A DNA stretch of 60,201 nucleotides from an uncultured bacterium (GCA_913051705.1 CAJXCW010000003.1:1-60201), one strand, 5' to 3'. Positions 1 to 32,269 are shown, counted from the stretch's first letter. A program made the numbers and translations. Notes: a model not told the origin generated them from the letters alone.

Positions 1-248
1 CTGCGTTCAATGACTATGTGGACCGCGCGGCCCATGAGCTTGATCCGGAGAAGCGCCTGGCCATGTACGACCAGGCGGAAGGCATCCTGTCCGAAGAAGT
101 CGGCGGCATATTTCTCTATCATCGATATGCCTTCGACTTGAGGAAGCCCTGGCTGAAAGGAATCAAACAAGATCGAATGGGCTATTATCCGTATCTTGAA
201 CATAATTCGAATGTGTGGTTCGATCTGTATATTGGTGCAACTGATTGA
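1..248 (+). CDS. 3' end of an ABC transporter substrate-binding protein, family 5 (peptide/opine/nickel type); gene starts before the window
   Basis: The C-terminal tail ...AEGILSEEVGGIFLYHRYAFDLRKPWLKGIKQDRMGYYPYLEHNSNVWFDLYIGATD aligns with the C-termini of the four complete family-5 SBPs in this window (AERILAED(V/A)GG.FL.H...RKPWV.G...D..G.YP...N..S.SDIYI). The frame is open from nt 3. Confidence 0.6.
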   Translation, partial: AFNDYVDRAAHELDPEKRLAMYDQAEGILSEEVGGIFLYHRYAFDLRKPWLKGIKQDRMGYYPYLEHNSNVWFDLYIGATD

Positions 249-2159: not shown

Positions 2160-2981
2160 CTATGGGGCTGACTGGCGCAGTGCAGCGCTCTCACTGAAAT
2201 CAAGAATGCCTTTGATATACCCTAATTCCGTATCAATAGGCGCTTTCTCCGCACGAATCTGCCGCCGGTTGAAGTAGTGGGCCAATCCACGCAGGTCTTT
2301 GTATGCTTTGTCGATCCTGACTCGGATGGTATTCTTGATAGGCATTTCGGGCATCATTTCCTGTTGGGCATACAGATCTTCTATGAGTTGATGGGCGTCT
2401 ACGAGGGACTCTTTCTCTGTCTGGCGCAGATAAAACGCCCGGGAATGACATGGTCCACAGGTATTTTCTTCGAGCGAGACCAGATCCATGTTGACTTCCT
2501 GCACCTCGTGGCTGCCGTGGCAGGTGACGCAGTTCGGTTCCCATCCTTCATCCGGAAAATCTTCCGTATGGATGTTGGCCTCATTGACAGAATAGGCCGA
2601 TTCGTGGCAGCTTGGGCCGCAGAAATTAGGGACACCCTCCGGACTTGGATCCGATTTAAAACCGTACTCTTCTCCCATGGATACAGTCAGGATGGTGCTC
2701 ATCGGATTTCCGCCATGACACGAATCACAGAAGACGCCGGCGCGAAAATGAACGCTACCGCGCCATTCGGCCACCTGCTCAGAGAGCCGTTCCCCCAGCC
2801 TTTGATGGCACATACTACACGTCTCAAAGAAAGGGCCGTCAAGTTTTTGCCAGCTCTCGGAGCCCTGAGCGTACGACGGGCCCTCCACTTCCTGAACTTC
2901 TTCCTGCGCCCGGGCTGTTCCGATGCACAAGCTCAGCGTCGCCACAACAATGGTTACATAACACCAATAGTTCATTTTCAT
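2160..2981 (-). CDS. Multiheme (penta-heme) c-type cytochrome, signal peptide
   Basis: N-terminal signal peptide. Heme motifs are CSMCH, CDSCH, CVTCH and CGPCH, plus an atypical CGPSCH (CX3CH). It is the last gene of the dehydrogenase/cytochrome operon. Confidence 0.75.
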   Translation of the reverse strand: MKMNYWCYVTIVVATLSLCIGTARAQEEVQEVEGPSYAQGSESWQKLDGPFFETCSMCHQRLGERLSEQVAEWRGSVHFRAGVFCDSCHGGNPMSTILTVSMGEEYGFKSDPSPEGVPNFCGPSCHESAYSVNEANIHTEDFPDEGWEPNCVTCHGSHEVQEVNMDLVSLEENTCGPCHSRAFYLRQTEKESLVDAHQLIEDLYAQQEMMPEMPIKNTIRVRIDKAYKDLRGLAHYFNRRQIRAEKAPIDTELGYIKGILDFSESAALRQSAP

Positions 2982-2996
2982 TCCCGAGGATTCCCC

Positions 2997-4643
2997 CTAT
3001 CCAATCGTTCCTTTTTTCATTTCCTCTATGATGTAGTCGCTTGCACGGAAAGCCAGCGCCTGAATCGTCAGCGTCGGGTTGCTCTTGCCCGATGTAACGA
3101 AACAACTTCCATCAACAACGAATAGATTCTTCACATTATGGGCTTGATTAAACTTGTTCAACACCGATGTTTCCGGATCGTCACCCATACGGCAGGTTCC
3201 CATCAGATGGGCATCGCCTCTCGGGACGCTGTTCCGACCGGACAAGACCTGCCTGGCGCCTGCCGTTTCGAGTAATTCTTTGGCACGATCTCTGAAAAAA
3301 TCACCCAGCTTATGTTCATTCGGATGGACATCGTACGTCACGCGAGGTACCGCCAACCCCCACTTGTCTTTCACATTGGGATCGAGATCGAGCACGTTTC
3401 TTTCCTGAGATAACGATTCCATACTCGTTACCACCATCATATTTTTGTTCCAGTTATCCATGATCCACTTCTTGCGTTTCGGACCCCAGCTCAAGACGCG
3501 CGGCACGTTCATTCTCGAAAAATTAATGGTGCTGCCGTCCCCACGCGGCTCCAGGACGCCACCACCGTAGAACCCGTATTTATCCGGATTCGGTTCGTAG
3601 AAGTCCTGGATAACCCTGGTGTCCATCACGCCCTGATATTCATTAAGGTCTTTATCAAAGAAGGCGCGCACCACCTGGTAATAGTTGAACATGAGATGTT
3701 TGCCGACTCTCCCGCTTCGATTGGCCAGCCCATCCGGAAACGCGGGTGACTGCGACATCTGAAGTAACCGTGGCGACATAACCCCGTTGCCGCACAGCAC
3801 GACGACACGCGATGACAGTTTCACCTCGTTGAGCTTTTCATCAAGATAAATGACCCCATTTGCAAGGCCGTTCTCATCCACCGTAATTTCTCGGACACAG
3901 GCGTTTGAGCGCAGTTCACAATTGCCGGATTTCATCGCCTTCGGCACCATGTTTACCAGGGTGCTCGATTTTGCTTCCATCGTACATCCATATCCTTCGC
4001 AGAATCCGCAGTCCATGCACTTTGCCCGGCCATCGTAGTTCTCGGTTAAGATGGCCATCGGGGTTGGATACGAGTGCCATCCGAGTTTTTTGGCCGCGTC
4101 ATCCGAAATGGCCCCCGAGGCCTTGCGGGTGACCGGCGGCATAGGATACGCTCTTCGCCTCGGCGAGTCGAACGGGTTAGCACCGGCCAGACCGGAGACG
4201 CCGATTTCGTATTCTGCTTTTTCGTAGTAGGGTTCGAGATCCCAGTAATCTAAAGGCCAGTCACGAACGTCAGCCCCTTCAACAGCGCCGAACGAGCTCC
4301 GCTCTTTAAAATCCGATTCGTGGAAACGCCAGGATATACCTGTGTAATGAATGGTCGAACCACCAACGTTGGCCTGCATGTTGATTGAATACATGGGCGC
4401 TGCATCCTCGTCCGCCATTTGCCGATAGGTGTTCGGTTGGTCGTATTTGATTAAGCCCCGCAAATGATGGCACTTTAACTCATCCTGCACGTAGTCACGC
4501 GTCTTGAGCCAGGGCCCCATCTCCAGCGCGACGACCTTCAGCCCCCGTGTGGCCAACTCTTTCATCACGACACCACCGGCGGCGCCGGTTCCGATAACGA
4601 TGACGTCCGGGTTTTCAATTCTGGGATTAGGTAAATGTGGCAT
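2997..4643 (-). CDS. GMC-family FAD-dependent oxidoreductase (dehydrogenase large subunit)
   Basis: N-terminal FAD-binding fingerprint VIVIGTGAAGGVVMKELATRGLKVVALEMG and GMC length (548 aa). GAGGG SD, ATG start. Confidence 0.85.
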   Translation of the reverse strand: MPHLPNPRIENPDVIVIGTGAAGGVVMKELATRGLKVVALEMGPWLKTRDYVQDELKCHHLRGLIKYDQPNTYRQMADEDAAPMYSINMQANVGGSTIHYTGISWRFHESDFKERSSFGAVEGADVRDWPLDYWDLEPYYEKAEYEIGVSGLAGANPFDSPRRRAYPMPPVTRKASGAISDDAAKKLGWHSYPTPMAILTENYDGRAKCMDCGFCEGYGCTMEAKSSTLVNMVPKAMKSGNCELRSNACVREITVDENGLANGVIYLDEKLNEVKLSSRVVVLCGNGVMSPRLLQMSQSPAFPDGLANRSGRVGKHLMFNYYQVVRAFFDKDLNEYQGVMDTRVIQDFYEPNPDKYGFYGGGVLEPRGDGSTINFSRMNVPRVLSWGPKRKKWIMDNWNKNMMVVTSMESLSQERNVLDLDPNVKDKWGLAVPRVTYDVHPNEHKLGDFFRDRAKELLETAGARQVLSGRNSVPRGDAHLMGTCRMGDDPETSVLNKFNQAHNVKNLFVVDGSCFVTSGKSNPTLTIQALAFRASDYIIEEMKKGTIG

Positions 4644-4694
4644 GTGTAGCCCTCATGAACTTTGATTAATCTTTAGATGATGTACGAGAAGTTG

Positions 4695-5345
4695 CTATCC
4701 GGTATAGGGCTCGAACGGAGGATATTCGATCTCAGGCATAGTGGCGTCATAGTACCCGAATGGGGCATCATATCCGAAGGCTTTCAACCCTGGGAAATTC
4801 AGTAACTTCCAGCCTATATCGTTGTAGTTACCACCGTATTGCGGATCTGTAAACATCCCCTCCATGGTATGCCCGATCACATGACGCAGCCAGGTACGGG
4901 GGGGCATATCCGCGTCGGATGGCCAATCAGCCGGCGTCCGGCGTCTGTCCATGGCCGATACAACTTTATTCTGTAGTTCCACAGTTAGTTCGACGAACGG
5001 GGCACCCTGTGCCGCGGTGGCAAACTGATCCAGCCACACCAGTCCCTTATCGTAAATTTCTTTTTCCTCGGCAAGGTGCGTTTTCAGCGACCGGTCGATA
5101 TAGGTGACCACGTGGGCATCTGTTGCGCCGGGTCCGTTTTCATCTGCGGGGAAGATGCATTCGGCCAGTGCTTCCACCGTCAGCCCCTGATGCGTCGTAA
5201 ACGATTCGAACTCACGCGTTTCCTGCGTGTCCTGGGATTTTAAACGCCCGGGCGTACCGATCATACTCAGAGAAATAATGCCACCCGTGGCTATGGCCGA
5301 TCGGGACAAAAATGTTCGGCGTGAGAGATTCGATTTTTTGCTCAT
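4695..5345 (-). CDS. Gluconate-2-dehydrogenase subunit-3-like small subunit with twin-arginine (Tat) signal
   Basis: MSKKSNLSRRTFLSRSAIATGG has the Tat motif SRRTFL. Size (~216 aa) and position, immediately upstream of the GMC flavoprotein, match three-subunit membrane-bound FAD sugar/polyol dehydrogenases. GGAGG SD. Confidence 0.7.
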   Translation of the reverse strand: MSKKSNLSRRTFLSRSAIATGGIISLSMIGTPGRLKSQDTQETREFESFTTHQGLTVEALAECIFPADENGPGATDAHVVTYIDRSLKTHLAEEKEIYDKGLVWLDQFATAAQGAPFVELTVELQNKVVSAMDRRRTPADWPSDADMPPRTWLRHVIGHTMEGMFTDPQYGGNYNDIGWKLLNFPGLKAFGYDAPFGYYDATMPEIEYPPFEPYTG

Positions 5346-5434
5346 GATAAATAACCTCCGGGATCGTAGGAACCCGATGCTTTCACAATATATTTTTGAT
5401 TCGGGGCGGAATTAATACAGGATAGCGGAAACTT

Positions 5435-5641
5435 CTACTCGTCTCTCTTTCCCCACACCAACAAAAGCACGTAATAGAGCACCCCCATGGCCAAACATCC
5501 ACCGCCGAATGTCATGTACCAGATTATCGATGTCGGGTGAGACCAGAACATGGTCAATAATTCGATGGTCAGGCCGAGCAGCACCAGCCCGCCGGCTACG
5601 CGTATACCGCGGTCGAAGGGCATAAGGAGTGAGGATATCAT
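5435..5641 (-). CDS. Small hydrophobic membrane protein (2 TM), hypothetical
   Basis: 68 aa and strongly hydrophobic. Its start overlaps the stop of the upstream cytochrome gene (ATGA-type coupling). Confidence 0.4.
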   Translation of the reverse strand: MISSLLMPFDRGIRVAGGLVLLGLTIELLTMFWSHPTSIIWYMTFGGGCLAMGVLYYVLLLVWGKRDE

Positions 5642-6294
5642 CAGTTTGTGGTCTCCTGCCAGAATTCATCCGGCTCGTAATCATCCAGTTCCTCTATATT
5701 GTGCTGTATATCGTGGCATTTACTTTCCATGCAAGAGAGGACGTTGGTATTGATTCTGGTCAGCATATCCGCTTCTTTCCTATGATGCCGGCTTTCCTCA
5801 TAGCTCCGGGCGTCCTGATGACACTGCAGACATTCGCGGTTGTTGTAGGGTTCGTACAGTTTAATATCCTTTGGCTCCGGCGTATCCCCGATATACTGAA
5901 CATACACATGTTTAAGACCACGTATCTTGGCCGTGATCCCTCCGTACCATACCTGATCGGAATGGCAAACATAACATGATCTATCCTGGGATACGAGGTA
6001 ATTCTGAAAATGATCGGCGGGAACAAACTCGTTGTCATCAACGTGGAGGCTTTTGCCCCAGTCGTCCATGATGTGGCACGACAGGCAATATTCTGTAGTC
6101 GTGGCATGATCACTCTGAATGATACCTCCCATCAGACCGACCGAGATCGGCAAGAGGAAGAGCGCACAGAAACCAACGATCTGCCCGCCTCCATCTTTGA
6201 GGATCGAGGGCTTAATCATAACGAGACAGACCATTAACATCGCCAGCACGATGGGTATGACGATGATAGCTGTTGGAAGAGATGGTTCAGGCAT
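5641..6294 (-). CDS. NapC/NirT/NrfH-like membrane-anchored tetraheme cytochrome c (quinol dehydrogenase type)
   Basis: N-terminal TM helix. Heme motifs are CLSCH, CYVCH and CLQCH, plus an atypical CMESKCH (CX4CH). I prefer the ATG at 6294, which has an AAGGA SD 8 nt upstream, over the TTG at 6333 listed in the track. Confidence 0.7.
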   Translation of the reverse strand: MPEPSLPTAIIVIPIVLAMLMVCLVMIKPSILKDGGGQIVGFCALFLLPISVGLMGGIIQSDHATTTEYCLSCHIMDDWGKSLHVDDNEFVPADHFQNYLVSQDRSCYVCHSDQVWYGGITAKIRGLKHVYVQYIGDTPEPKDIKLYEPYNNRECLQCHQDARSYEESRHHRKEADMLTRINTNVLSCMESKCHDIQHNIEELDDYEPDEFWQETTN

Positions 6295-6316
6295 ACTGGT
6301 TATCCTTAGCGATTGA

Positions 6317-6727
6317 TTACTTCTTGGTTTCAACCTCGGTCTTCATCGAGACCAGCCAGTTCGTTAAGACCTCGAACTCTTCATCCGTGCCACGGAATTT
6401 TTTCTCGTGTTTCTCGCCGTTCTGCTTGTTCTTTTTCTTCAGATACAGCTTCAGCCAATCGATCTCGTGCACTAAACCGACGGCGGACAGATCCGGCGCA
6501 TCCTCATCGATCTCATCAGGCTCCAGGTCTCCGATATCCAGGTCGATTTTCGCTATCTGGACCGAATGACATCCCTGACACTCATGTTCAGTAAAAATAG
6601 CCACCGCCGTGGCCTGATCCTGATCCTGCGCAAGCGATATATCGGTTGAAAACATGCCCACGATGATAAATCCCAACACCGCTGCGGCGCTCGTTAACAT
6701 ACCAGTAAAAGCGACCGTCTTTTTCAT
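6317..6727 (-). CDS. Monoheme cytochrome c with signal peptide
   Basis: Signal peptide, a single CQGCH motif, and an acidic/lysine-rich C-terminus. AGGAG SD 6 nt upstream of the ATG. Confidence 0.6.
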   Translation of the reverse strand: MKKTVAFTGMLTSAAAVLGFIIVGMFSTDISLAQDQDQATAVAIFTEHECQGCHSVQIAKIDLDIGDLEPDEIDEDAPDLSAVGLVHEIDWLKLYLKKKNKQNGEKHEKKFRGTDEEFEVLTNWLVSMKTEVETKK

Positions 6728-6986
6728 CGTTGCTCCTAATAATATTTTGGTTCTGTTCGCTCAGATCTGATATTTGCTTATACGCTGATTTGCGGCATTT
6801 GGTTTCACTGGAAGCTGATACACAATATAGACCGAGCGGATATGTGAGACAAGGTTTTTTTTCCCGATTCGGTGTCGTCCTGGAAAGCGTGAATCTCAAG
6901 CCACTGCAGGGCCTGAAATCAGCCTCCCAGGACAGACCCCGTTCATCGATAGGACATCCGCCCGATCCGCCTTATCCGCATAAAAA

Positions 6987-8252
6987 CTAACTCGCCTTAC
7001 CGAGAATATCTTTCAGTTCGCTGATGAAGACTTCGAGTTCATCCGGTTTGCCGATAGATACTCGGATGTGGTTATTCAGCAGGTTATGTTCCCGAGTTCT
7101 GTAACCGCCACCACTGCGGATGCTTACGCCACGTTTCCTCATTTCGGTCGACATACGCCGACTGTCCCGGCCTATATTTACGATCATAAAGTTACCATGA
7201 CTCGGCGTATATTCGAGGCCCATCTTATCGAACTCGGCTATCAGGTAATCTTTGCCGTCGTTGGTCACCTTTCTGGTCATAGCGACGAATTCATGATCAT
7301 CCAACGCCGCTGCCGCTGCATGCGTACTCAACGAGGTCAGCCCGCCACCGAAGCCCTGCTGCAACATCATGCGGTCCAGTAACGGCCTGTTGGTAATGGC
7401 GTATCCGATCCGCATACCGGCCAGACCGTAGATTTTGGAGAAGGTGCGGGTCACGACCACATTATTGCGTTCCAGCGCCAGCGAAATGGCATCCTGATAA
7501 CCCTCTTCGCGAACGAAATGGATATAGGCTTCGTCAATCAGGATGGTTACATGTTCGGGTATCGATTCCACAAACGTCTTCAAAGTGTCGTAAGGGATGA
7601 TCGTACCCGTCGGGTTATTCGGATTGGTGATGGTCATGATGGTCGTCTTCGGTGTCACGGCGGCCTTCATGGCATCGAGATCGTGGGTGAAATCCCCTGT
7701 GGTAGGCACACGGATCACCTTAACGTTCTGTCCCGACATCTGATAGCCCTGGAACGCACGGGAAATCTGACCATACCCCGGTACGGCTTCAATACATTCA
7801 CCGGTGCCGTCTCCAATAGCCATGACGCCAAGCACTTGGAGGATCGGCCCCGAACCGGCTGAGACCATAATCCGGTTTACCTCACGAAATTTCATGAAGG
7901 ATGCCATGTCTTCGAAATCTATCTTGAAATCTTCACCCATATTAATGCCATGAGCCTGATGCAGTTTTAACGGCAGGTCGAAGCTGAACGAATACCGATT
8001 GATTTCATGCAGATGTTTGGTAATCGCTTCAACAGCTCTCGGGGAGGCACCGAGGGGGTTTTCATTGGAACTGATCTGAACCCGCCCCGCCGGGACGCCG
8101 TAACCACGGATATCCGATGCCTTTTTACCGGCAGCCAGTGCCTCGGCGATGTTGAAATGGGAACTGGCCGCAACAGCCCCTGCGCCTGCCAAGGCACCTT
8201 TCATGAAACGACGACGTGAAACACCACTGTTCAGTATATTTGCAAAATCCAT
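6987..8252 (-). CDS. Class I/II (HisC/CobD-like) PLP-dependent aminotransferase with Tat signal peptide
   Basis: SRRRFMKGALAGAGAVAASS is a canonical RRxFxK Tat motif. The SNENPLG motif and TFSKIYGLAGMRIGY (PLP-Lys region) are typical of histidinol-phosphate aminotransferase-like enzymes. GGAGG SD. Confidence 0.8.
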   Translation of the reverse strand: MDFANILNSGVSRRRFMKGALAGAGAVAASSHFNIAEALAAGKKASDIRGYGVPAGRVQISSNENPLGASPRAVEAITKHLHEINRYSFSFDLPLKLHQAHGINMGEDFKIDFEDMASFMKFREVNRIMVSAGSGPILQVLGVMAIGDGTGECIEAVPGYGQISRAFQGYQMSGQNVKVIRVPTTGDFTHDLDAMKAAVTPKTTIMTITNPNNPTGTIIPYDTLKTFVESIPEHVTILIDEAYIHFVREEGYQDAISLALERNNVVVTRTFSKIYGLAGMRIGYAITNRPLLDRMMLQQGFGGGLTSLSTHAAAAALDDHEFVAMTRKVTNDGKDYLIAEFDKMGLEYTPSHGNFMIVNIGRDSRRMSTEMRKRGVSIRSGGGYRTREHNLLNNHIRVSIGKPDELEVFISELKDILGKAS

Positions 8253-8699
8253 TCTTCATCCTCCAAAAAGGGTAGTACAAAATTCAAAAAACGAACAAAT
8301 AAAAACAGGTTGCTGCATATATAACCAGTATCCTGTATCCTACATCCTCATATCACATTAAACCTGCTGTATCATGCCTTAATTAATATCCAACTAAACG
8401 GTTCATTTATCCATAGGATATGATCCGCCCAAGGGAAGGCCCATGTCTGACGTTTCAGCTTTTCCCGCTTGTTACAAACGACCGGGGTCACCGAATTGTT
8501 CCACCAGTTCTTATTTAAACTCGATAAGCATACAAATCTCTTTCAGGAACCTTCAAAATATTAATGGTTTTTGGTGCTGTCGCCGCTTAATTCGGTCCGC
8601 AAGTTTGTTATTATGAATTGACGATTAAAACAGCCCCTTCTATATTTATACCAATTGGTGAACTGCGCTATCACTCGCTGGAGCCCGTAGGGATCAACA

Positions 8700-14537: not shown

Positions 14538-15911
14538 CTAAGCGCTTTTATTACTGACAAGCACCGCGTGGGCCGAACGATCTTTACCACCATCCTGGGT
14601 ATGTTGATAGGCACGGTGTGCGGCCGGTGAACCGAGGGTGGTGATCGCCAGCATTTTTTCCGCCGTTTTCGTGGCGACATACGGGCGCCGGATATCGGTC
14701 GGGTTGGTCTGTATATGACCCTTCCAGGCGCCCAGCGAGGTTTGCGCCTGAATCAGGCCCTTGATCATGCCCATATCATTCAGCATAGCCACATCATCTG
14801 CAGGACCGAGAATAATCGCGCCGGAAAGCTGGTCCCCATCCCACAAAAGCTTGCGGTAGAGAGGCCGGCTCGCATTAATAGTTTCGGTCTTCTCCCCCCC
14901 ACTGCTCCAACTGCCGAAGCTGGCGCACTGTAAGCCGCACACATCCAGAATATTCATCAGCAGACTACCGGGATATTCGACATCCTGTCCGGCCATATTG
15001 GCGCCGGCAATCCGTCCGTGATCTACAGCGGTGGTCTGGATGGCATGGATGGCCTGCTGCCCTGTGGACAAATCCGATCCTTCCGCCACATCGCCTGCTG
15101 CATAAATATTGGAAATATTGGTCTGACAACGACTGTTAATGAGGATACCCTCATTGGTGTTGACACCAGAACCATTCAGGAAATCGATATTGGTACGGAT
15201 ACCGGTTGCGACAATGACCAGATCAGCCTGCGTTGAGGAGCCATCGGAGAGTTTTAGTGTTTTCTTGCCGTCGCTGCCATGTTCAATCGCCTGTACACTG
15301 ACGCCGGTATGCGTCCTGACCCCGTGTTCATTAAGCCAGGTGTTGACTAGTGAAGCGCCCTGGGCGTCCAGCATACGCGGCAGCACCTGATTTTCCAATT
15401 CTATCACCGTGAGTCTGGCGCCTATCTTATACATGGCATTCAGGATGATAAAACCGATAAAACCAGCGCCGATGAAAGCCACTTCCGCATCGCCGTCCAT
15501 GGCGGCTACCACGTTTTTCGCGTCGTCCATCGTCCACAGATTGTGGACACCCTCCCCATCGGCGCCCGGTATGGGAAGTGGCTGAGGCGACGAACCGGTA
15601 GCGATTAGCAGATTATCATATTCTACTGTAGAGCCGTTATCGAGTGTCACGGTATTTTCTGAGGCATTAACAGAAGTTACCCGTAAACCAAATTGGGTGG
15701 TCACCCCCAGATTGCTGAAATACCCGTCATCTCCGGTCAGGACCTGATCCACGGGAATGCTCTTTGAGATGTAGTACGGCAAGGCCATACGGGCATAGGC
15801 CGGCTCATCCGAGATCAGGGTTATCGAAGCATCGGCATCATAGCCTCGAATTGTTTCTATGGCGTTTATCCCGCCCGGTCCGCCACCGATAATCACGTGT
15901 CGTGCTGCCAT
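14538..15911 (-). CDS. FAD-dependent pyridine nucleotide-disulfide oxidoreductase (class II, NAD(P)H-linked), candidate AorC-like electron-transfer subunit
   Basis: VIIGGGPGG (FAD) and a second Rossmann segment, EVAFIGAGFIGFI (NAD(P)). I place the start at MAARH with a GGAGG SD 6 nt upstream, rather than at 15944. Confidence 0.8.
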   Translation of the reverse strand: MAARHVIIGGGPGGINAIETIRGYDADASITLISDEPAYARMALPYYISKSIPVDQVLTGDDGYFSNLGVTTQFGLRVTSVNASENTVTLDNGSTVEYDNLLIATGSSPQPLPIPGADGEGVHNLWTMDDAKNVVAAMDGDAEVAFIGAGFIGFIILNAMYKIGARLTVIELENQVLPRMLDAQGASLVNTWLNEHGVRTHTGVSVQAIEHGSDGKKTLKLSDGSSTQADLVIVATGIRTNIDFLNGSGVNTNEGILINSRCQTNISNIYAAGDVAEGSDLSTGQQAIHAIQTTAVDHGRIAGANMAGQDVEYPGSLLMNILDVCGLQCASFGSWSSGGEKTETINASRPLYRKLLWDGDQLSGAIILGPADDVAMLNDMGMIKGLIQAQTSLGAWKGHIQTNPTDIRRPYVATKTAEKMLAITTLGSPAAHRAYQHTQDGGKDRSAHAVLVSNKSA

Positions 15912-15940
15912 ATGCATCCTCCAGGTACAAGTAACAAGCG

Positions 15941-15995
15941 GCAAGTGGCAAGTGGCAAGTTAATGCTTTCACTCTTCACTCTTCACTCTTCACTG
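15941..15995. repeat. Intercistronic heptamer tandem repeats (GCAAGTG)x3 and (TCACTCT)x4
   Basis: Seen directly between the AOR and FAD-oxidoreductase genes. Confidence 0.8.
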
Positions 15996-15998
15996 ATT

Positions 15999-17828
15999 TT
16001 AACCAAGGCCCAATTCCATCAATTTTTCCTGAGTCGGTTTTCCATCCGGAGTCCATCCGCGTGCGGCATAATATTCGGGCAGCATGACATCAAGATTTAC
16101 AGTGACGCCGGCGGAGGGACCTTTCTTGTGTGCTTCTTTCAACAATCGTTCCGGTAAAGAGTCATCTGCCGCCGTGAGGCCGGCTTTCAGATTCCACAGA
16201 CGTTCAATATTCCAGATCCGTTCGCCGATCTTGACAAAATCATCCATGTCATAATCCACGTCCGTTGCGGCCGACAACACGGGAAGAAGATCATCGAGCG
16301 GCGCGCCTGCCGTGGTAAACATACATATGCCGGTTGCATCGTGGGCCGTGGTTCGATTCTGTTCTTCGGCCACCCACTTTGATTTTCCATCGGTGGTATG
16401 CGGATCGTATTCTCCGGATGTTTCAATACCGGGTGTCCAGGCTCTCAAATGACAGGCGCCACGATTGCAGGTAGCAAAGGCGATGCCCATGCCCTGGAAC
16501 CCACGGGGATCATACGCCGGAAATTCCTGCCCCTTGACGCCCATGAAGTATTCAGGATGCTCGAATTTTTCGGTCATGCGTTTGGAGCCTTCGGCCAATT
16601 CGTCGCCGAACCCTTCCCGGAAGCCGGTGGCCTCGGTCATGGCTATGAGCGCTTTCCCGTCACCAAATTTGAGAGGCATGCCGATCTGATCTTCCGAAAG
16701 CAGACCACGTTCGTACATTTCCATGGCCGCGGCCAGGGTCGCCCCCATGGAGATCGGGTCCATACCGAGGTCGTTACACAGATAGTTGGCCATGACAATG
16801 GCGTCCATATCGTCTATCCCGCAGTCGGCACCAAGGGACCACAGATTTTCATACTCCGGTCCTTCGCCGGCGATCTTCCAGTTCCGTGGGTGCATGTTGA
16901 CCATGTATTTGTCGGCATTCGGCGTGACTTGCGTCACCCGACCGCAGGCGATGTTGCAGGCGAAACAGGCCTTGTTGGCAACCAACCATGTATCTTTGAT
17001 CGCATCCCCGTTAATTTTTTCCGTCCCTTCAAACTGTCCCTCCGTAAAGTTACGGGTCGGCAGGCCACCGAAGGCATTAATCAGATCAATCGTAGGTGCG
17101 GTCCCCAGTTCCGTCAAACCCTGACGACCCGGGCTTTCTGCGAGGTGCCCGTGATAGGAGCGGATAGAAGACATATAGTCTTTGGGGCGAGCGATCTGTA
17201 CCCCTTTCGTGCCTCGTACGGCGATGGCCTTCAGGTTCTTGGAGCCCATGACTGCGCCCACGCCGGAACGACCCGCAGCGCGATGCTTGTCGTTTATTAT
17301 TCCAGCAAATCGGACCAGTTTCTCGCCTGCTGGACCGATGCAGGCGACGCGTAATTTCGGCATCCCGGTTTCATCACGGATCGCATCTTCCGTTTCTGAA
17401 ACCACCTTGCCCCACACATTCCCGGCATCCCGTATCTGCACATCGTCATCATTGATCAGCAGATAACAGGGCTTCTCGGCTTTTCCTTCCACAATGACCA
17501 TGTCGTATCCGGCGAATTTCAACTCCGGTCCCCAATGACCACCTGAATTGGACGTCGTAATCGCCCCGGTGAGCGGCCCTTTGGTGACCACCATATAACG
17601 GGCGCCGCAGGACGCATTCGTACCCGTCAACGGACCGGTCGCCATAATCAGCTTGTTCTCCGGACTGAGGGCATCCACACCGGGGTCCATCTCCTCATAG
17701 AGATATTTCGCCCCCAGCCCACGCCCGCCGATATATTCCCGCGCCCATGTTTCATTCAGCGGTTCTCTGGTGATGCGTCCTTCCGTCAGATCCACACGCA
17801 GGATATATCCTGCCCAACCATAAGACAT
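15999..17828 (-). CDS. Tungsten-containing aldehyde:ferredoxin oxidoreductase (AOR family), paralog 1
   Basis: Full-length AOR architecture: N-terminal MSYGWAGYILRVDLTEG, the AOR_N domain, Cys ligands for the [4Fe-4S] cluster, and pterin-binding regions. GGAG SD. Start chosen by analogy to paralog 2. Confidence 0.9.
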   Translation of the reverse strand: MSYGWAGYILRVDLTEGRITREPLNETWAREYIGGRGLGAKYLYEEMDPGVDALSPENKLIMATGPLTGTNASCGARYMVVTKGPLTGAITTSNSGGHWGPELKFAGYDMVIVEGKAEKPCYLLINDDDVQIRDAGNVWGKVVSETEDAIRDETGMPKLRVACIGPAGEKLVRFAGIINDKHRAAGRSGVGAVMGSKNLKAIAVRGTKGVQIARPKDYMSSIRSYHGHLAESPGRQGLTELGTAPTIDLINAFGGLPTRNFTEGQFEGTEKINGDAIKDTWLVANKACFACNIACGRVTQVTPNADKYMVNMHPRNWKIAGEGPEYENLWSLGADCGIDDMDAIVMANYLCNDLGMDPISMGATLAAAMEMYERGLLSEDQIGMPLKFGDGKALIAMTEATGFREGFGDELAEGSKRMTEKFEHPEYFMGVKGQEFPAYDPRGFQGMGIAFATCNRGACHLRAWTPGIETSGEYDPHTTDGKSKWVAEEQNRTTAHDATGICMFTTAGAPLDDLLPVLSAATDVDYDMDDFVKIGERIWNIERLWNLKAGLTAADDSLPERLLKEAHKKGPSAGVTVNLDVMLPEYYAARGWTPDGKPTQEKLMELGLG

Positions 17829-17897
17829 AGCATACTCCATTGAGTGATTGGTGATTTTTTTCATTCACCATTCGCCAATCGCAATCCACCAATTTTA

Positions 17898-19742
17898 TTA
17901 CAGTCCCAACGAGTCCAGTTTTTCCCTGGTCGGTTCGCCGTCGGCGCTCCATCCGCGTAGTTCATAGTACTCCGGCAGCATTTCGCCGAGCCTGTTGACC
18001 TCGCCCTTGGTGGGGCCCGCGGGAATGGGTTCTTCGAGGAGTCGTTTAGGTAAGGTGTCGTCTTTTCCGGTGAAGCCGGCCTTTTGATTCCATATCCGCT
18101 CAATATTCCATACCCGCTCTCCCACTTCCATCAGTTTGGGCACGGAATAGGGTATGCCGGTGACCGCCGCTATCTGGGGTTGCATTTCTTCCAGGCCGAC
18201 GCCAAAGGTCAGGAAAAGACATAATCCGGTCGAGTCAACCGTAGAGGTGGCGTCCTGGAAAATCTTGGTTATTTCGGCTTTGCCTTCGGTGACCGCCGGA
18301 TCCATCTTTTCCGGTATCCCCAGGATTTCAGGCGCCACGGTATAACTTTTCAAATGGCAGGCGCCGCGGTTAGAGGTCGCGTAGCCGAGGCCCATACCCT
18401 GGATGGCTCGGGCATCGTAAGCGGGGAATTCCTGACCACGTACGCCCATGAAAAGTTCAGGATGCTCGAACTTCTCCGTCATACGCTTGGACCCCTCGGC
18501 CAGTTCGTTGCCGAACCCTTCCCGATAGGCGGTCCATTCAGCCATGGCCACGAGGGCATCGGCGTTTCCAAAATTAAAAGGCATGCCGGTCTGATCGTCG
18601 TTGAGGATGCCTTTCTCATACATTTCCATCGCTGCGGCCAGGGTTGCACCGAACGATATGGGATCCATCCCCAGTTCATTGCACAGCGCACCGGCCTTAA
18701 TCAACGCATCCAGATCGTCGATACCACAATCGGCGCCCATGGCCCAGGCATTTTCGTATTCCGGACCTTCCACCGCAATCTTCCAGTTATGTGGTCGGGT
18801 CGTGACCATAAACTTGTCCTGTGCTTCACCCGGCAACTGCGATACTCGACCACAGGCCATGGTACAACTGAAACAGGCTTTGTTTGATACCAGACGGGTA
18901 TCCGCCAGCGTCTCGCCACTGAACTTGTCCGCGGTTTCCATCTGTGCAAACTGATGGTTGTTGGCCGGCATGGCGCCGCTCTCATTGATCACATTGACAA
19001 GGACCGCTGTGCCGTAGGCGGCCAGCCCTTCACCCGTGATCGGATGTTCGGCCAGTTTGCTCTTCATCTCCCACATGGCGCCCATGAGTTTCTGCGGGTT
19101 TGCTACCGGCACGGCGCCGGTTCCGCGGACGACGATGGCTTTCAGGTTCTTGGAGCCCATGACGGTGCCGACGCCGGAACGACCTGCGGCGCGATGCCGA
19201 TCATTGACAATAGCAGCAAAACGGACCAGATTCTCGCCGGCGGGACCGATACAGGAAATGACCGCATCATGCACCCCGAATTCCTCACGGACCATATCAT
19301 CTGTTTCCCAGACGGTTTTGCCCCAGAGGTGTTCGGCGTTACGAATCTTTACCTGATCATTATATATTGATATATATGAGGGCTTCGGTGCTTTGCCTTC
19401 GAGTATCAGCATGTCGTAGCCGGCGAACTTCAACTCCGGTCCCCATGTCCCGCCCGAGTTGGACGTAGTGATGGCATTGGTCAGCGCCCCTTTGGTCACG
19501 ACCATAAACCGGGCGCTTGTAGAGACATTGGTACCGGTCATCGGGCCGGTGGCAAAGATCATCTTATTATCCGGGCTCAGTGGATCTGTGGTCGGATCCA
19601 TTTCTTCCGACAGATATTTGGCGCCGAGGCCACGCCCGCCGATAAAATCTTTGGCCCACTCCATATTGAGCGGCTCTTTCGTTATCTGGCCGGTGGTGAG
19701 ATTGATGCGTAACACCGTGCCTATCCATCCGCCTGTACTCAT
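17898..19742 (-). CDS. Tungsten-containing aldehyde:ferredoxin oxidoreductase (AOR family), paralog 2
   Basis: 614 aa, about 65% identical to paralog 1 over the N-terminal 150 aa (MSTGGWIGTVLRINLTTG...). Its start overlaps the ferredoxin stop (ATGA). Confidence 0.9.
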   Translation of the reverse strand: MSTGGWIGTVLRINLTTGQITKEPLNMEWAKDFIGGRGLGAKYLSEEMDPTTDPLSPDNKMIFATGPMTGTNVSTSARFMVVTKGALTNAITTSNSGGTWGPELKFAGYDMLILEGKAPKPSYISIYNDQVKIRNAEHLWGKTVWETDDMVREEFGVHDAVISCIGPAGENLVRFAAIVNDRHRAAGRSGVGTVMGSKNLKAIVVRGTGAVPVANPQKLMGAMWEMKSKLAEHPITGEGLAAYGTAVLVNVINESGAMPANNHQFAQMETADKFSGETLADTRLVSNKACFSCTMACGRVSQLPGEAQDKFMVTTRPHNWKIAVEGPEYENAWAMGADCGIDDLDALIKAGALCNELGMDPISFGATLAAAMEMYEKGILNDDQTGMPFNFGNADALVAMAEWTAYREGFGNELAEGSKRMTEKFEHPELFMGVRGQEFPAYDARAIQGMGLGYATSNRGACHLKSYTVAPEILGIPEKMDPAVTEGKAEITKIFQDATSTVDSTGLCLFLTFGVGLEEMQPQIAAVTGIPYSVPKLMEVGERVWNIERIWNQKAGFTGKDDTLPKRLLEEPIPAGPTKGEVNRLGEMLPEYYELRGWSADGEPTREKLDSLGL

Positions 19743-20230
19743 GCTGTGCTCCCTTCATCTATGGATGCCAGATAAGAGGCATTCACTTTTTCAGCCCAAC
19801 CACCCAGCCAATCGGCCGAGTCGCTATCGGTATATTCGATGGCTCCGGTCGGACAGGCGGTTACACAGGCTGGATCTCCATCGCAAAGATCACATTTGAA
19901 GGCTTTTTGTGTATCCGGATTATAGAATATCGTGCCGAACGGACAGGCAATGGTGCAGAGGCTGCATCCCACACAGTTGGCATCGCCGACGATCTTGGCG
20001 CCGGTATTCGAATCAATGCTGATGGCATTGACCGGACAGGCATTCATACACCAGGCTTCATCACATTGAAAGCAGGTATACGGCGCATAGCTGGCCTGTT
20101 CATCAAAGATATTGACCCTGATCAGAGATCGTGAGGGTTGGAACATACCAGTTTGTACCCAGGAGCATGCCAACTCACACTGCATGCATCCTGTGCATTT
20201 ATCGGGAATAATGCGCAGAGACTTAGCCAT
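19739..20230 (-). CDS. Polyferredoxin with four [4Fe-4S] CxxCxxCxxxCP motifs (AorA-like electron-transfer subunit)
   Basis: Four motifs: CTGCMQCELAC, CFQCDEAWCMNACP, CVGCSLCTIACP and CDLCDGDPACVTACP. AGGGGG SD. It is the first gene of the cluster. Confidence 0.85.
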   Translation of the reverse strand: MAKSLRIIPDKCTGCMQCELACSWVQTGMFQPSRSLIRVNIFDEQASYAPYTCFQCDEAWCMNACPVNAISIDSNTGAKIVGDANCVGCSLCTIACPFGTIFYNPDTQKAFKCDLCDGDPACVTACPTGAIEYTDSDSADWLGGWAEKVNASYLASIDEGSTA

Positions 20231-25136: not shown

Positions 25137-26192
25137 CTAACCAATCCGGCGAACAATGTCATCCCCAACTTCTGTGGTGGAGGATGCGCCCCCGATATCG
25201 GGGGTACGGATCTTATTTTCTCGTATATTATCGGCTACGGCCTGACGGATGAGTGCGCCTGCGTCGCTTTCACCGAGGAATTCGATCATCATTGCGGCCG
25301 CCAGAATGGTGGCCAGCGGATTGACCAGTCCTTTGCCGATTAATTCAAAAGCCGATCCGTGTACCGGTTCAAACATGGAAGGAGATTGTCGGCTGGGGTT
25401 CAGATTCGCACTGGGGGCCAGGCCCATGCTGCCGATTATTACAGCCGAAATGTCGGTCAGGATGTCTCCGAAAAGGTTGGAGGCGACCACCACATCAAAA
25501 TCTTCGGGACGTCGAACGAAATCCATGGCGGCGGCGTCGATGAGCAAAGACTCCGTTTCTATATCCGGATAATCCTTTTCCACTTCCTGGAATACCTCAT
25601 CCCAGAAAACCATACTATAGCCTTGCGCATTCGATTTGGTAATGGAGGTGACCTTGTTCTTTTTTTGACGACGGCGGGCTTCTTCAAAGGCATATCGGAT
25701 GATACGCTCTGTACCGTGCCGGGTAAATACCGCTGTTTGTACAGCGACTTCCTGATTGGTGTGTTGATAAAGCCTTCCGCCTACGTCCGCATACTCCCCT
25801 TCCGTATTTTCACGGAGGACAACCAGGTCGATATCGCCTCCGGATTTGCCGACCAGGGGTGATTGCACCCCGTCGTACAGATAGCCCGGCCGCACACAGG
25901 CATACTGGTCAAACCGGCGACGAATCGGCAGAATCAGGTTATTAAGGGTAATATGGTCCTGGATTTCCGCATCCCCCACCGCGCCAAAAAAGATGGCGTC
26001 ATAATTCGCCACTTCATCGAGTCCGCCTTCCGGAATAAACCGGCCGGTCTGCCGATAGTAGTCTGAACTCCATCCGAAATCCGTGAAGGTAAAGGTCGGG
26101 GCACTCAGGGCCTGCAGCGCCTTTTTGCCTTCATTAATTACCTCAGGACCAACACCGTCACCGCTGATGACGGCGATATTGTAGTGGGACAT
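25137..26192 (-). CDS. Isocitrate/isopropylmalate dehydrogenase-family enzyme (LeuB / tartrate dehydrogenase-like)
   Basis: IAVISGDGVGPEV N-terminus and the NLFGDILTD signature. AGGAG SD. Confidence 0.85.
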   Translation of the reverse strand: MSHYNIAVISGDGVGPEVINEGKKALQALSAPTFTFTDFGWSSDYYRQTGRFIPEGGLDEVANYDAIFFGAVGDAEIQDHITLNNLILPIRRRFDQYACVRPGYLYDGVQSPLVGKSGGDIDLVVLRENTEGEYADVGGRLYQHTNQEVAVQTAVFTRHGTERIIRYAFEEARRRQKKNKVTSITKSNAQGYSMVFWDEVFQEVEKDYPDIETESLLIDAAAMDFVRRPEDFDVVVASNLFGDILTDISAVIIGSMGLAPSANLNPSRQSPSMFEPVHGSAFELIGKGLVNPLATILAAAMMIEFLGESDAGALIRQAVADNIRENKIRTPDIGGASSTTEVGDDIVRRIG

Positions 26193-26212
26193 AGAAACTC
26201 CTTAAAAAGATA

Positions 26213-26288
26213 GTTCCGAGTTCGGAGTTTCGAGTTCGGAGTTTAAAAATGCACCCTTAAGACTCGGAACTTTCAACTCGGAACTTTT
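26213..26288. repeat. Large imperfect hairpin built from GTTCCGA/GTTCGGA heptamer tandem repeats (terminator candidate)
   Basis: GTTCCGAGTTCGGAGTTTCGAGTTCGGAGTTT ... GACTCGGAACTTTCAACTCGGAACTTTT. Confidence 0.6.
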
Positions 26289-26827
26289 CACTCGCATTTA
26301 CCACACACCCACGCCGCCCTGAGCATGCCGTCGGTTGGAATTTCGGTGTCGTAATCCGGTTTAACAAAAACGTTGGTCTCCCCGCAAAAGTCACATTTCC
26401 CGCGTTGTTTCTTTTCGGGTCGACCGGCAATTTTAATGGCCAGATCATCTTTTTCGATGACCGGTTTTGAAAACATATTGGCAAAACCAAGTACCTGTCG
26501 ATCCTTCTCCGACGCCAGGGTACGTTTCAGGATGGGTTCGAAGGCCGGATCGGACGGACAGCCGCCGTCCTCGAGGGTATGCCAGGCCTGACGTCGCACC
26601 TTTATATCCGAATCCTCCATCATACGATAGAGCGCTTCCCATACTTCTTCATTACGATGCCGAACATGGCATGGACAGAAATAGCTCGCTGCAAGGAGGC
26701 GGTCTTCCGGATCATGACTTCGAGACAGGCCAAGCAGTTCTTCGATTTCTTCTTTACCGACCCGTTCCTCTCCTCTTTTATGGGCCGCTTTCTGATGCTT
26801 ATTCATCCCCTGTGTTCGTTTACTCAT
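26288..26827 (-). CDS. HEAT/PBS-lyase-like repeat protein with C-terminal CxxC...CxxC zinc-ribbon
   Basis: HEAT-like repeats (DPEDRLLAASYF..., DIKVRRQAWHTL...) and a C-terminal CDFCGETN...CGKCE. Start re-placed at MSKRTQG, with a GGAGG SD 6 nt upstream. Confidence 0.5.
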   Translation of the reverse strand: MSKRTQGMNKHQKAAHKRGEERVGKEEIEELLGLSRSHDPEDRLLAASYFCPCHVRHRNEEVWEALYRMMEDSDIKVRRQAWHTLEDGGCPSDPAFEPILKRTLASEKDRQVLGFANMFSKPVIEKDDLAIKIAGRPEKKQRGKCDFCGETNVFVKPDYDTEIPTDGMLRAAWVCGKCE

Positions 26828-26843
26828 GATGGCCTCCTGAGTC

Positions 26844-26909
26844 GTTCCGGGTTCCGAGTTGAAAACTATTTCCTGTTTTACTCTGAACTTTCCACTCGGA
26901 ACTCGGAAC
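26844..26909. repeat. Inverted repeat of CCGAGTT-type heptamers (hairpin between FAH-family and HEAT genes)
   Basis: GTTCCGGGTTCCGAGTTGAAAAC ... GAACTTTCCACTCGGAACTCGGAAC. Confidence 0.6.
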
Positions 26910-27815
26910 TTACAGTTGCATAACCGGATTCGACAACGTACCGATTTCCGGACACGAAATGACAACGATATCGCCATCCATAAGAGATAATTCATTCGGG
27001 ACCATGATGCCGGTGCCGGTAGAAACGAGGGTGCCGGGCGGAATCGGATTATCCCGATAAAGATACTCATTTAATTCTTCAAACGTACGAGCCAGTTGTG
27101 AGGTGTTGGTCTGACCTTCAAAGATCGTTGTTTCGCCCCGAATGATCTGACAGCTGATGTCAAGATTATAGGGATCATCAATTGAATCTGCCGTCACCAA
27201 TGTCGGGCCAAAAGAACAACAGCCGAAGTAGATTTTCGACTGGTTCAAATACAGCGGATTTTCTTTTTCGAGATCCCACGCGGAAACATCGTTACAGAGC
27301 GTATACCCTATGATTTCCCCCTCCTCGCCCAACACATAGGCCAATTCCGGTTCGGTGGCGGTCAGTGTCGAATCGCTTCGGACGCCGATGGGGGCATTAG
27401 GGCCGGAGCATCGTGAGGGCGTGGCTTTGAAAAAAGCCTCCGGACGAGGTGAAGTATAGACCTGATCGTAGATGGTATTCTGCGCATCCTCATCTCGAAT
27501 CTGAGCGCTGCGTTTGTAGGTGACGCCGAATCCCCAAACTTCCGGAGCAAATATGGGCAGCGTCAAATGCGGGACCGCGATATCCGGGACGGTATCCAGG
27601 ATATCGTAGGCGTACTCCGTCACCGCTTCATCCTGGTCGTTCATCATTCTATCGACCAATTCGGATATCGACATACGGACGGTACCGGCGATCTGGATCA
27701 GATCATTAACCGTCTCTATATCCGGATTATTCTCGGACAGATCCAGGATGGTGTCCCCTTGAACAACGCCCACCCCGGTACCCTGACCGGGCTGGTAAAA
27801 TTGGACCAATTTCAT
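26910..27815 (-). CDS. Fumarylacetoacetate hydrolase (FAH)-family hydratase/decarboxylase
   Basis: C-terminal FAH signature ...PPGTLVSTGTGIMV...GDIVVISCPEIGTLSNPV. Start placed at MKLVQF, with an AGGAG SD. Confidence 0.7.
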   Translation of the reverse strand: MKLVQFYQPGQGTGVGVVQGDTILDLSENNPDIETVNDLIQIAGTVRMSISELVDRMMNDQDEAVTEYAYDILDTVPDIAVPHLTLPIFAPEVWGFGVTYKRSAQIRDEDAQNTIYDQVYTSPRPEAFFKATPSRCSGPNAPIGVRSDSTLTATEPELAYVLGEEGEIIGYTLCNDVSAWDLEKENPLYLNQSKIYFGCCSFGPTLVTADSIDDPYNLDISCQIIRGETTIFEGQTNTSQLARTFEELNEYLYRDNPIPPGTLVSTGTGIMVPNELSLMDGDIVVISCPEIGTLSNPVMQL

Positions 27816-28093
27816 AATAGCGACTCCTGGGAAACAGGCAAAAAGCAAAGCGAGCGAAGCGGGAGTATGTTCCATACTTTCGCATGAGCAGAGCAAATGC
27901 CATTACAACTTGTGAATGATGGCCTATTATTGATTTTCAACGGGGCAAATTTACTGCTCATAATTACAATCTATTAACATCAGATAGCAAGATATTTGTT
28001 CTTTAGTTCTTTGTTCCTCGAAATTGAGATCCCGTTTTTGTAAACAAAGTTACGAAAGTACAAAAAACAAAGCAACTTGATACAAATTTTCTA

Positions 28094-28122: not shown

Positions 28123-28148
28123 TAGTCTTCTGTCAGCTTAAAAAATCT

Positions 28149-29502: not shown

Positions 29503-29522
29503 GCAAATCGAGTGATTGGGTA

Positions 29523-32237: not shown

Positions 32238-32269
32238 TTTGATCTCCCTTCTCGCCCCTCGCCATTCCC

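Follow-up and report, generated by a model that had tools for sequence, protein, structure and literature searches.

Flavoprotein dehydrogenases of the fructose dehydrogenase (FDH) and FAD-glucose dehydrogenase (GDH; FAD, flavin adenine dinucleotide) type are well studied and have found importance in biosensors and in work on direct electron transfer. Enzymes of this class are exported by hitch-hiking on a small subunit that carries a twin-arginine translocation (Tat) signal, and their electrons run from FAD to a 3Fe-4S cluster, from there to a cytochrome subunit, and finally to quinone. Here we describe a related locus in a 60,201-nt stretch of DNA from an uncultured bacterium (GCA_913051705.1 CAJXCW010000003.1:1-60201; the whole stretch is hereafter the window), which its named homologues place in Candidatus Latescibacterota. 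Seven genes, six of them as originally listed, occupy positions 2160-8252 of the minus strand and encode a GMC-family dehydrogenase and its small subunit, three c-type cytochromes, a small membrane protein, and an aminotransferase of the pyridoxal phosphate (PLP) type with an export signal. Our analysis suggests that this system probably couples the respiration-linked oxidation of an alcohol in the periplasm, with electrons entering the quinone pool, to transamination of the carbonyl product.

The core of the locus shares several features with the FDH of Gluconobacter (7W2J), the FAD-GDH of Burkholderia cepacia (6A2U), gluconate 2-dehydrogenase and sorbitol dehydrogenase, i.e., a GMC subunit without a signal of its own, a PF13618 partner whose Tat signal serves the hitch-hiker, clustered Cys residues at the position of the Fe-S site, a periplasmic location (predicted here), and a c-type cytochrome as electron acceptor. 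However, the FDH/GDH class has a membrane-bound triheme cytochrome c subunit encoded together with the other two, whereas in the window four proteins stand in its place, namely the pentaheme, the monoheme, the NapC-like tetraheme and the 68-aa membrane protein. The two also differ in sequence (~30% identity), in the spacing of their Cys residues, in phylum (Latescibacterota) and in the exported aminotransferase that is the genetic partner here. Since the defining triheme subunit is absent, the window system, although expected to work like the FDH, FAD-GDH and gluconate 2-dehydrogenase complexes, is not a strict member of these groups. Its features, with transmembrane helices abbreviated as TM and positions counted from the first letter of the window, are as follows.

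8414-8483, minus strand: fossil 3' end of a deleted GMC gene of the Type A layout described below (nhmmer E = 1.6e-5)
6987-8252, minus strand: HisC-like class I/II PLP aminotransferase, 421 aa, with a Tat-type signal (Pfam PF00155, Aminotran_1_2, E = 5.9e-45)
6728-6986, minus strand: spacer of 259 nt between the aminotransferase and the cytochrome module, the junction of the mosaic (comparative layout)
6317-6727, minus strand: monoheme c-type cytochrome, 136 aa, with a Sec-type signal or anchor (CQGCH; Pfam PF00034, Cytochrom_C, 22.2 bits against a cut-off of 21.3)
5641-6294, minus strand: divergent NapC/NirT/NrfH-type tetraheme cytochrome, 217 aa, with two N-terminal TM helices (PF03264, 31.2 bits against a cut-off of 24.1)
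5435-5641, minus strand: membrane protein of 68 aa with two TM helices (homologue alignment and hydropathy)
4695-5345, minus strand: Gluconate_2-dh3 small subunit with the motif SRRTFLS (PF13618, E = 1.4e-27)
2997-4643, minus strand: catalytic subunit of a GMC-family FAD dehydrogenase, 548 aa, without a signal peptide (GMC_oxred_N/GMC_oxred_C)
2160-2981, minus strand: pentaheme c-type cytochrome, 273 aa, predicted to be soluble and periplasmic (five heme motifs)

This gene order, including the 259-nt gap, was identical in seven independent assemblies from different samples (ENA, Logan, JGI), and because it recurs in this way, the arrangement is real and not a misassembly. The original prediction, made from the sequence of the window alone, had named six of these genes, and all six were present on the minus strand at the coordinates listed above, except that the NapC-like gene had been started at TTG 6333. 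The correct start is the ATG at 6294 (MPEPS..., 217 aa, with AAGGA upstream), as in all homologues. That gene set was also incomplete, having overlooked the 68-aa two-TM gene at 5435-5641. Overall, the observation itself was confirmed, while the interpretation placed on it was borne out in part only. A scan of every reading frame of the 60-kb window found no c-type cytochrome gene other than those for the 1-, 4- and 5-heme proteins; therefore, no triheme subunit is present, and the proposal that other cytochromes replace it holds. Rfam gave zero matches within or around the operon. Searches of the available literature library returned no description of the module, of the NapC-like cassette or of the trio of small subunit, GMC protein and aminotransferase, and nothing relevant on the combinations of periplasmic aminotransferase, Tat and GMC or of Latescibacteria, GMC and cytochrome.

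The closest solved relatives of the GMC protein, as determined by phmmer against the PDB, were the large subunit of fructose dehydrogenase (7w2j, E = 1.4e-48) and FAD-glucose dehydrogenase (6a2u, E = 6.7e-47), and an exact look-up of the window protein gave no match. Its N-terminus consists of the Rossmann GxGxxG motif, with no signal peptide, and the region of the catalytic His is conserved across its relatives. The motif CGFCE[GS]Y[GV]C holds three Cys residues that do not vary between the window protein and its 25 relatives and that align with the Cys-rich segment of FDH, suggesting a putative Cys-ligated Fe-S cluster at the position that the 3Fe-4S cluster holds in FDH. The small subunit had no significant relative by sequence among solved structures, and the motif SRRxF[LI] was present in 25/25 loci. 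By hydropathy, the h-regions of both twin-arginine (RR) proteins of the locus are weak, in contrast to the strongly hydrophobic, Sec-type signals of the cytochromes (~2.6 in a 12-residue Kyte-Doolittle window). Homology to solved structures, PF13618 and the conserved RR thus all bear out the predicted core of the FDH/GDH type, with a hitch-hiking GMC protein and a small subunit that has a Tat signal.

To place the locus among its relatives, we compared 20 close loci and several metagenome contigs, which were obtained by scanning one GTDB genome per species with the GMC protein and by protein look-ups. In the first layout (Type A), an S66 peptidase gene is divergent from a trio of small subunit, GMC and aminotransferase genes, and cytochrome genes are absent nearby. 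Type A occurs in L001, L002 and L011-L026, and also in L027 and L028, where the sequence is cut before the aminotransferase; at least 16 species have it without cytochromes, and L011 retains the trio without the S66 flank. In the second layout (Type B), genes for a truncated globin with a signal peptide, cytochrome c, the NapC-like protein, a 67-aa protein, the small subunit, the GMC protein and the pentaheme converge on an arginine deiminase (ADI)-like gene. Type B was found in the P0140 contig and in L006, L009 and L010, while L005, L050 and L051 show part of it. The six-gene module that extends from cytochrome c through the NapC-like, 68-aa, small and GMC subunits to the pentaheme is kept as a unit in four further lineages, at 56-82% identity. 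The third layout is that of the window, in which the aminotransferase stands at the position of the Type B globin.

The flanks of the window locus are of Type A on one side (S66, 2-hydroxyacid dehydrogenase, Ppx) and of Type B on the other (ADI-like). Compared with L001, the aminotransferase and the flanking genes are 71-88% identical, i.e., 6-18 points above the main Type A clade. The GMC protein and the small subunit of the window are 70% and 50% identical to those of L001, 67% and 47-51% identical to those of the main Type A clade, and 80-82% and 65-66% identical to those of Type B. As judged from these identities, the window layout is a lineage-specific mosaic of Type A and Type B. We then searched the whole window by nhmmer with a hidden Markov model built from the last 150 nt of 18 Type A GMC genes. 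Second only to the intact GMC gene was the match at 8414-8483, which lies 162 nt upstream of the aminotransferase start and whose translation reads SFVTSGKS (8/8 identical), a stop, a 10-nt deletion with a frameshift, and then AFxxADxIL. No relic of a Type A small-subunit gene was found upstream of the aminotransferase. This GMC fossil and the mosaic identities indicate that the present lineage has lost, by deletion, the ancestral pair of small subunit and GMC genes that preceded the aminotransferase.

The aminotransferase adjoins the small subunit and GMC genes in at least 17 Latescibacterota species, from about four lineages, so that the predicted link between the two enzymes stands. The pairing has been kept through a gene displacement, which is the best evidence of a joint function, although it is not proof. 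Another part of the original prediction fared less well. The aminotransferase had been taken to head the module, but it is not the head of a conserved operon: it follows the small subunit and GMC genes in at least 16 species, and the globin is found in its place in the four Type B lineages. The order aminotransferase-cytochrome-GMC, whose conservation in related genomes had been proposed as a check, recurred in the seven assemblies, while relatives show Type A or Type B instead.

Several observations were also made on the genes that surround these loci. In L006 (164-682), L009 (7375-7899) and L010 (1926-2420), the Type B module is headed by a Bac_globin gene with a clear signal peptide, and an exported truncated globin is unusual in itself. 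At 1124-2038 of the plus strand, the window has a gene of the arginine-deiminase/DDAH superfamily that converges on the pentaheme gene, as it does in L006, L007 and L048; this gene travels with the module, on the opposite strand. A block of 41 nt at 8608-8648 is 90% identical to the intergenic region between the S66 and small-subunit genes of L001, and within it the divergent S66 LD-carboxypeptidase gene has a promoter-like site, TTGACG-17-TATATT. An SBP_bac_5 gene ends at the left edge of the window (6-245, plus strand), and the C-terminus encoded there shares 81% identity with the SBP_bac_5 protein of L001 (18337-20004), where it lies 7 kb downstream of the aminotransferase, and the block between the aminotransferase and SBP_bac_5 genes is exchanged between the window and L001 lineages.

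The N-terminus of the aminotransferase (...GVSRRRFMKGALAGAGAVAASS...ALA-AG) contains the motif SRRRFMKG, followed by a weakly hydrophobic h-region with a hydropathy of 1.4 in the 12-residue window. The Pfam TAT_signal model scored 16.7 bits, which is under its cut-off of 22.7. Among the 120 best homologues (38-98% identity), 116 carried [ST]RRxF within the first 45 residues, the others being gene calls cut short, one sequence with PRRGF and another with a Sec-type signal, and S/T-RR-x-F-[MLV]-K was present in 21/21 locus-derived aminotransferases. This conservation of RR is strong evidence that the aminotransferase is exported by the Tat pathway, as had been predicted. The PLP-binding Lys is found in an FSK motif. 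NCBIfam models gave 225.6 bits for PRK09105 (cut-off 444), 222 bits for hisC (TIGR01141; cut-off 276.55) and 171 bits for PtaA (NF051461; cut-off 500), and since all of these scores are under the cut-offs, the enzyme belongs to none of the three at the equivalog level. Alignments to the models PRK09105 and PtaA start at residues 9-11 and so take in the signal region, and the match to PtaA covers residues 11-410 (E = 2.7e-50).

HisC is cytoplasmic and serves histidine biosynthesis, whereas the window enzyme has a Tat-type signal, a score below the hisC cut-off, and no his genes in its context. A better precedent is PtaA of Pseudomonas, which acts on the Glu side chain of pyoverdine to give alpha-ketoglutarate and which is likewise HisC-like, a PLP transaminase of class I/II that carries a twin-arginine signal. 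PtaA is exported by Tat in folded form with bound PLP and is also found in species that make no pyoverdine, for which reason its discoverers suggested that it takes part in other periplasmic pathways (PMC6206403). The window enzyme differs from PtaA in its score, in having no pyoverdine context and in its GMC dehydrogenase partner; hence, it would be expected to work like PtaA but is not PtaA. The original prediction regarded the export of PLP enzymes as rare. However, since the exported family is large and includes PtaA as a characterized member (PMC6206403), export alone is unremarkable.

The pentaheme cytochrome carries the motifs CSMCH, CDSCH, CGPSCH, CVTCH and CGPCH, and all five sites are conserved in its relatives. 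The third site is of the CX3CH form (CGP[SE]CH) in the Latescibacteria clade and CXXCH (CGRCH) in distant members, as would be expected if one residue had been inserted into a genuine heme site. Three His residues are invariant (H78, H158 and H235) and a fourth, H138, almost so; H235 is located in a C-terminal domain of three helices. The family proper is tiny: 5.8 billion clustered proteins gave 11 matches, and 2 representatives fell below 1e-30. When the search was made exhaustive with HMMER, the pentaheme nevertheless gave 141 representatives at E<=1e-10, which are mainly uncharacterized pentahemes of 260-290 aa, frequently with a C-terminal anchor. Weak matches were obtained with the DmsE/MtrA decaheme model (23.9 bits, over model positions 3-127, its N-terminal half) and with an NrfB-like Pfam family (E = 0.0028). 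No significant sequence relative was found among solved structures, and Foldseek, when run on the AlphaFold2 (AF2) model, whose heme core is of low confidence, gave nothing at E<=0.001. The monoheme cytochrome is 56-65% conserved in Type B loci, and the His in EKHEKKF is its sole invariant candidate for a distal ligand. Its gene is always directly upstream of the NapC-like gene, in the Type B, L037-L040 and metagenome loci alike.

A paralogue of the pentaheme was seen elsewhere. The window at 25137-35325 is syntenic with L008 (6195-20039), and L008 has, between its FAA-hydrolase and ABC_tran genes, an orphan pentaheme (40% identical, from the cluster of 141 sequences) together with MacB-like and HEAT genes, none of which the window has. 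This orphan could be the acceptor of the cytochrome-less Type A dehydrogenases. The ABC_tran gene of the window itself (28755-29466, plus strand) aligns with its homologue in L008 as two pieces that overlap and lie in different frames, and it is, for that reason, probably frameshifted (a pseudogene or a sequencing error).

The NapC-like cytochrome carries CLSCH (CLSCHxM), CYVCH, CLQCH and CMESKCH, and all four sites are conserved. It passes the PF03264 threshold and falls far under the NCBIfam equivalogs, with 27 versus 134 bits for NrfH, 20.5 versus 349 for NapC and 19 versus 311 for napC_nirT; the predicted membrane tetraheme of NapC/NirT type is thus sustained, albeit in a form divergent from the named equivalogs. 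The last site is invariably CX4CH across the subfamily, as CMESKCH in the window and C[LI]SSGCH elsewhere. Both of the non-canonical motifs that had been pointed out, CX3CH in the pentaheme and CX4CH here, are therefore real, being conserved among homologues. Two N-terminal TM helices are indicated by hydropathy and by the AF2 model (pLDDT, the model's per-residue confidence, 82-87), and no significant sequence relative was found among solved structures. Proteins of the NapC/NirT/NrfH/CymA group, including cM552 of Nitrosomonas and ImoA of Sideroxydans, are membrane tetrahemes that link periplasmic cytochromes with quinone, and the window protein is probably alike in this; with NrfH, it shares a first motif of the form CXXCHxM. 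However, NapC, NirT and NrfH have a single TM helix, whereas the window protein has two, together with the invariant CX4CH at its fourth site and an obligate partner of ~67 aa with two TM helices. By homology, then, the membrane end of the chain would work like NapC/NirT/NrfH yet represents a subfamily of its own, which has an additional subunit.

A two-helix homologue of the 68-aa protein, 66-73 aa in length, lies directly downstream of the NapC-like gene in L006, the P0140 contig, L009, L010 and L037-L040; the 68-aa protein itself had no match in Pfam or NCBIfam. The NapC-like cassette was found in at least 589 metagenome loci, and its context was counted in the best 80 of these. The ~67-aa partner was seen in ~50/80, many of the remainder being too short to show it, and an MtrA-like gene was upstream in ~35/80, usually with a gene for a protein of 600-820 aa, most of the others being too short upstream. 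Only 2/80, the two closest (76-80% identical), were of the GMC type. The cassette also follows decahemes of the MtrA/DmsE type in L037, L038 and L040, and the L037 decaheme scored 264 bits with TIGR03508 (cut-off 192). Since the cassette occurs beside MtrA-type decahemes as well, it appears to be a portable unit that connects periplasmic cytochromes to the membrane. The NapC-like protein, its ~67-aa partner and the monoheme make up what would be an undescribed cassette, which is not obviously included in the three named families of electron-transfer quinol oxidases/quinone reductases (PMC6295460).

One identification was considered for these proteins and rejected. The NapC-like protein and the monoheme do not represent the MtoD/ImoA (CymA-ES1) pair of Sideroxydans, given that the NapC/NirT models barely match the window protein, whereas ImoA shares 64% identity with NirT (PMC9600427) and therefore belongs to another branch. 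MtoD (4xxl) matched the monoheme only at E = 0.46, via the signal peptide and the heme motif. The monoheme of the MtrA-type clusters is c6/c551-like, unlike that of the window. These clusters form a widespread, apparently undescribed group, mostly from soil (L037 4097-8833, L040 766-8845, L060 4043-12304 and ~35 of L052-L129), that comprises an MtrA/DmsE-like decaheme, the 600-820-aa protein, which has no Pfam match, a monoheme, a NapC-like tetraheme with CX4CH, and the ~67-aa protein. In L040, the cluster is joined to Rieske and cytochrome b genes.

We propose the following mechanism. By analogy with the FDH/FAD-GDH class, to which it is homologous, the FAD-containing GMC protein would fold in the cytoplasm and be carried out in folded form by the Tat signal of the small subunit. 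In the periplasm, it would act on a sugar, polyol or sugar acid and convert a hydroxyl into a carbonyl. Its electrons would then pass from FAD through the Cys-ligated Fe-S cluster to the soluble pentaheme, from there to the monoheme, and on to a membrane complex of the NapC-like and 68-aa proteins that exchanges electrons with the quinone pool; we infer this order of carriers, and the direction of flow, from the gene order and from the other contexts of the cassette. The three-gene membrane cassette would be a portable unit that elsewhere serves MtrA-type decaheme clusters. The aminotransferase most likely acts on the carbonyl product of the GMC protein or takes that carbonyl as a periplasmic amino acceptor, as suggested by the conserved pairing of the two genes and by the chemistry of both families. 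As to the history of the lineage, a cytochrome-less pair of small subunit and GMC genes upstream of the aminotransferase was deleted, and a paralogous module that bears cytochromes now lies downstream of it. A chain of comparable logic operates in ammonia oxidizers, where electrons run from hydroxylamine oxidoreductase to cytochrome c554, then to cM552, and then to quinone. In both cases a dehydrogenase would feed a soluble multiheme cytochrome, a NapC-type tetraheme and finally quinone; however, the enzymes and cytochromes of the two chains are unrelated, and the likeness is by analogy alone.

A number of points weigh against this proposal. The organisms are uncultured, and the functions assigned here are predictions from the genes. 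The heme domains of the AF2 models had pLDDT values below 50 (below 55 for the heme core of the pentaheme), and only the TM helices, in the NapC-like protein, and a bundle of C-terminal helices, in the pentaheme, were modeled with confidence. With respect to the type of cluster, the Cys spacing is CX2CX4C in the window GMC protein versus CCX4CX3C in FDH. The remaining points concern either the direction of electron flow, which is taken up below, or the aminotransferase, which might be a mere neighbor with a transcription unit of its own, an unrelated periplasmic role (e.g., PtaA-like tailoring) and an inherited position. We regard this alternative as possible but rather doubtful. The 259-nt gap contains a weak sigma-70-like site (TTGTCT-17-TATATT at 6852-6824) and could separate two transcription units. 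The original prediction held that a strong terminator and promoter in this gap would argue for separate units; the spacer at 6728-6986 has no canonical intrinsic terminator, and of the two only the weak promoter-like site is present. The spacer RNA folds at -89 kcal/mol (z = -3.6 versus shuffled controls), with no terminator-like T run and no Rfam match. The spacer is 99% conserved among the 7 assemblies, and it has no relic of a globin gene and does not resemble, at the DNA level, the equivalent regions in relatives.

The comparative data bear on the same question from both sides. In the four Type B lineages, the cytochrome module has no aminotransferase within the available sequence and has the globin gene in that position. 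Most of the loci in which the aminotransferase is linked belong to one fairly tight clade with long-range synteny, so that part of the conserved order is phylogenetic inertia; the trio nevertheless survives in L011, which has no S66 flank. Distant homologues of the aminotransferase (40-45% identity) occur in unrelated contexts, beside peptidases or another aminotransferase and not beside GMC genes. However, in the window lineage the fossil marks the loss of the original GMC partner, and the aminotransferase again adjoins a GMC module, now a paralogous one. Furthermore, both proteins are predicted to reside in one compartment. The conserved pairing therefore supports a functional link between the two enzymes, as distinct from their co-transcription.

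Since the oxidizing flavoprotein is the only enzyme of the module, flow toward the quinone pool is the most economical direction. NapC/NirT/CymA proteins are classically quinol dehydrogenases, those of the NapC/NirT type are regarded as bidirectional (PMC6295460, PMC9600427), and ImoA, which had long been assumed to be a quinone reductase, oxidized quinol in vivo (PMC9600427). It is thus conceivable, although in our judgment distinctly unlikely, that the pentaheme and monoheme feed a terminal cytochrome c oxidase or another periplasmic acceptor, and that the NapC-like protein is a second, quinol-oxidizing input. A monoheme cytochrome c is the usual donor of an oxidase, and the MtrA-type clusters that the cassette accompanies can run outward; on the other hand, no oxidase or reductase gene is present in the module or the window, the cassette is placed with a dehydrogenase in five lineages, and the FDH/GDH class delivers its electrons to quinone through the cytochrome subunit. 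A reductive system, in which quinol would supply the NapC-like protein, cytochrome c, the pentaheme and finally a flavoprotein that reduces a periplasmic carbonyl or other acceptor, has the usual direction of NapC-type proteins in the two papers just cited as its sole support and is highly improbable, since all characterized relatives of the catalytic subunit are oxidizing dehydrogenases and GMC enzymes are not known as respiratory reductases.

Clues to the substrate of the GMC protein were sought among the neighboring genes. Type A loci are accompanied by genes for an IlvD-type aldonate dehydratase, a PfkB kinase, an HpcH aldolase, a UxuA-like protein and BNR proteins, and the window by those for a GhrB-like 2-hydroxyacid dehydrogenase and a Gfo/Idh/MocA protein. 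These neighborhoods hint at sugar acids and fix no specific substrate; the amino-alcohol or amino-sugar pathway that was originally suggested is still a guess. An alpha-keto acid, e.g., a 2-keto-aldonate, would suit a class I/II aminotransferase, although this is speculation, and a 2-keto-aldonate, as gluconate 2-dehydrogenase would make, is also our most specific guess at the product. The chemistry proposed here would resemble the amination of aminoglycosides by NeoQ/NeoB, in which a GMC enzyme oxidizes an alcohol to a carbonyl that a PLP aminotransferase converts to an amine. The GMC enzyme 6'''-hydroxyparomomycin C oxidase (7DVE) was a weak match to the window protein (E = 2.2e-6). In that pathway, however, the GMC enzyme is an oxidase and not cytochrome-linked, the aminotransferase is of another class, and the pathway is not known to be periplasmic. 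The fullest form of the proposal, a wholly extracytoplasmic pathway of oxidation followed by transamination, in which a 2-keto-aldonate is converted to an amino sugar acid or serves to recycle the pyridoxamine form while the electrons leave by a dedicated portable chain, is tentative and, as matters stand, unlikely.

Farther along the window, at 14538-20230 of the minus strand, there are two genes for tungsten-type aldehyde:ferredoxin oxidoreductases (AOR), with genes for a poly-4Fe-4S protein and a pyridine-nucleotide-disulfide oxidoreductase, and this cluster resembles AOR-type aldehyde oxidoreductase operons.

These results suggest that dehydrogenases of the FDH/GDH type can exchange their triheme subunit for a modular cytochrome chain made up of several proteins. 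If the proposed path is correct, this chain would be a previously unrecognized, portable quinone-coupling cassette that is common to the present dehydrogenase module and to MtrA-type clusters for extracellular electron transfer. The tie between aminotransferase and dehydrogenase in at least 17 species, together with the case of displacement in the window lineage, points to a periplasmic PLP chemistry beyond the tailoring of pyoverdine. Such a pairing may also offer an answer to the question of how PLP enzymes, once exported, are supplied with a keto or amino co-substrate.

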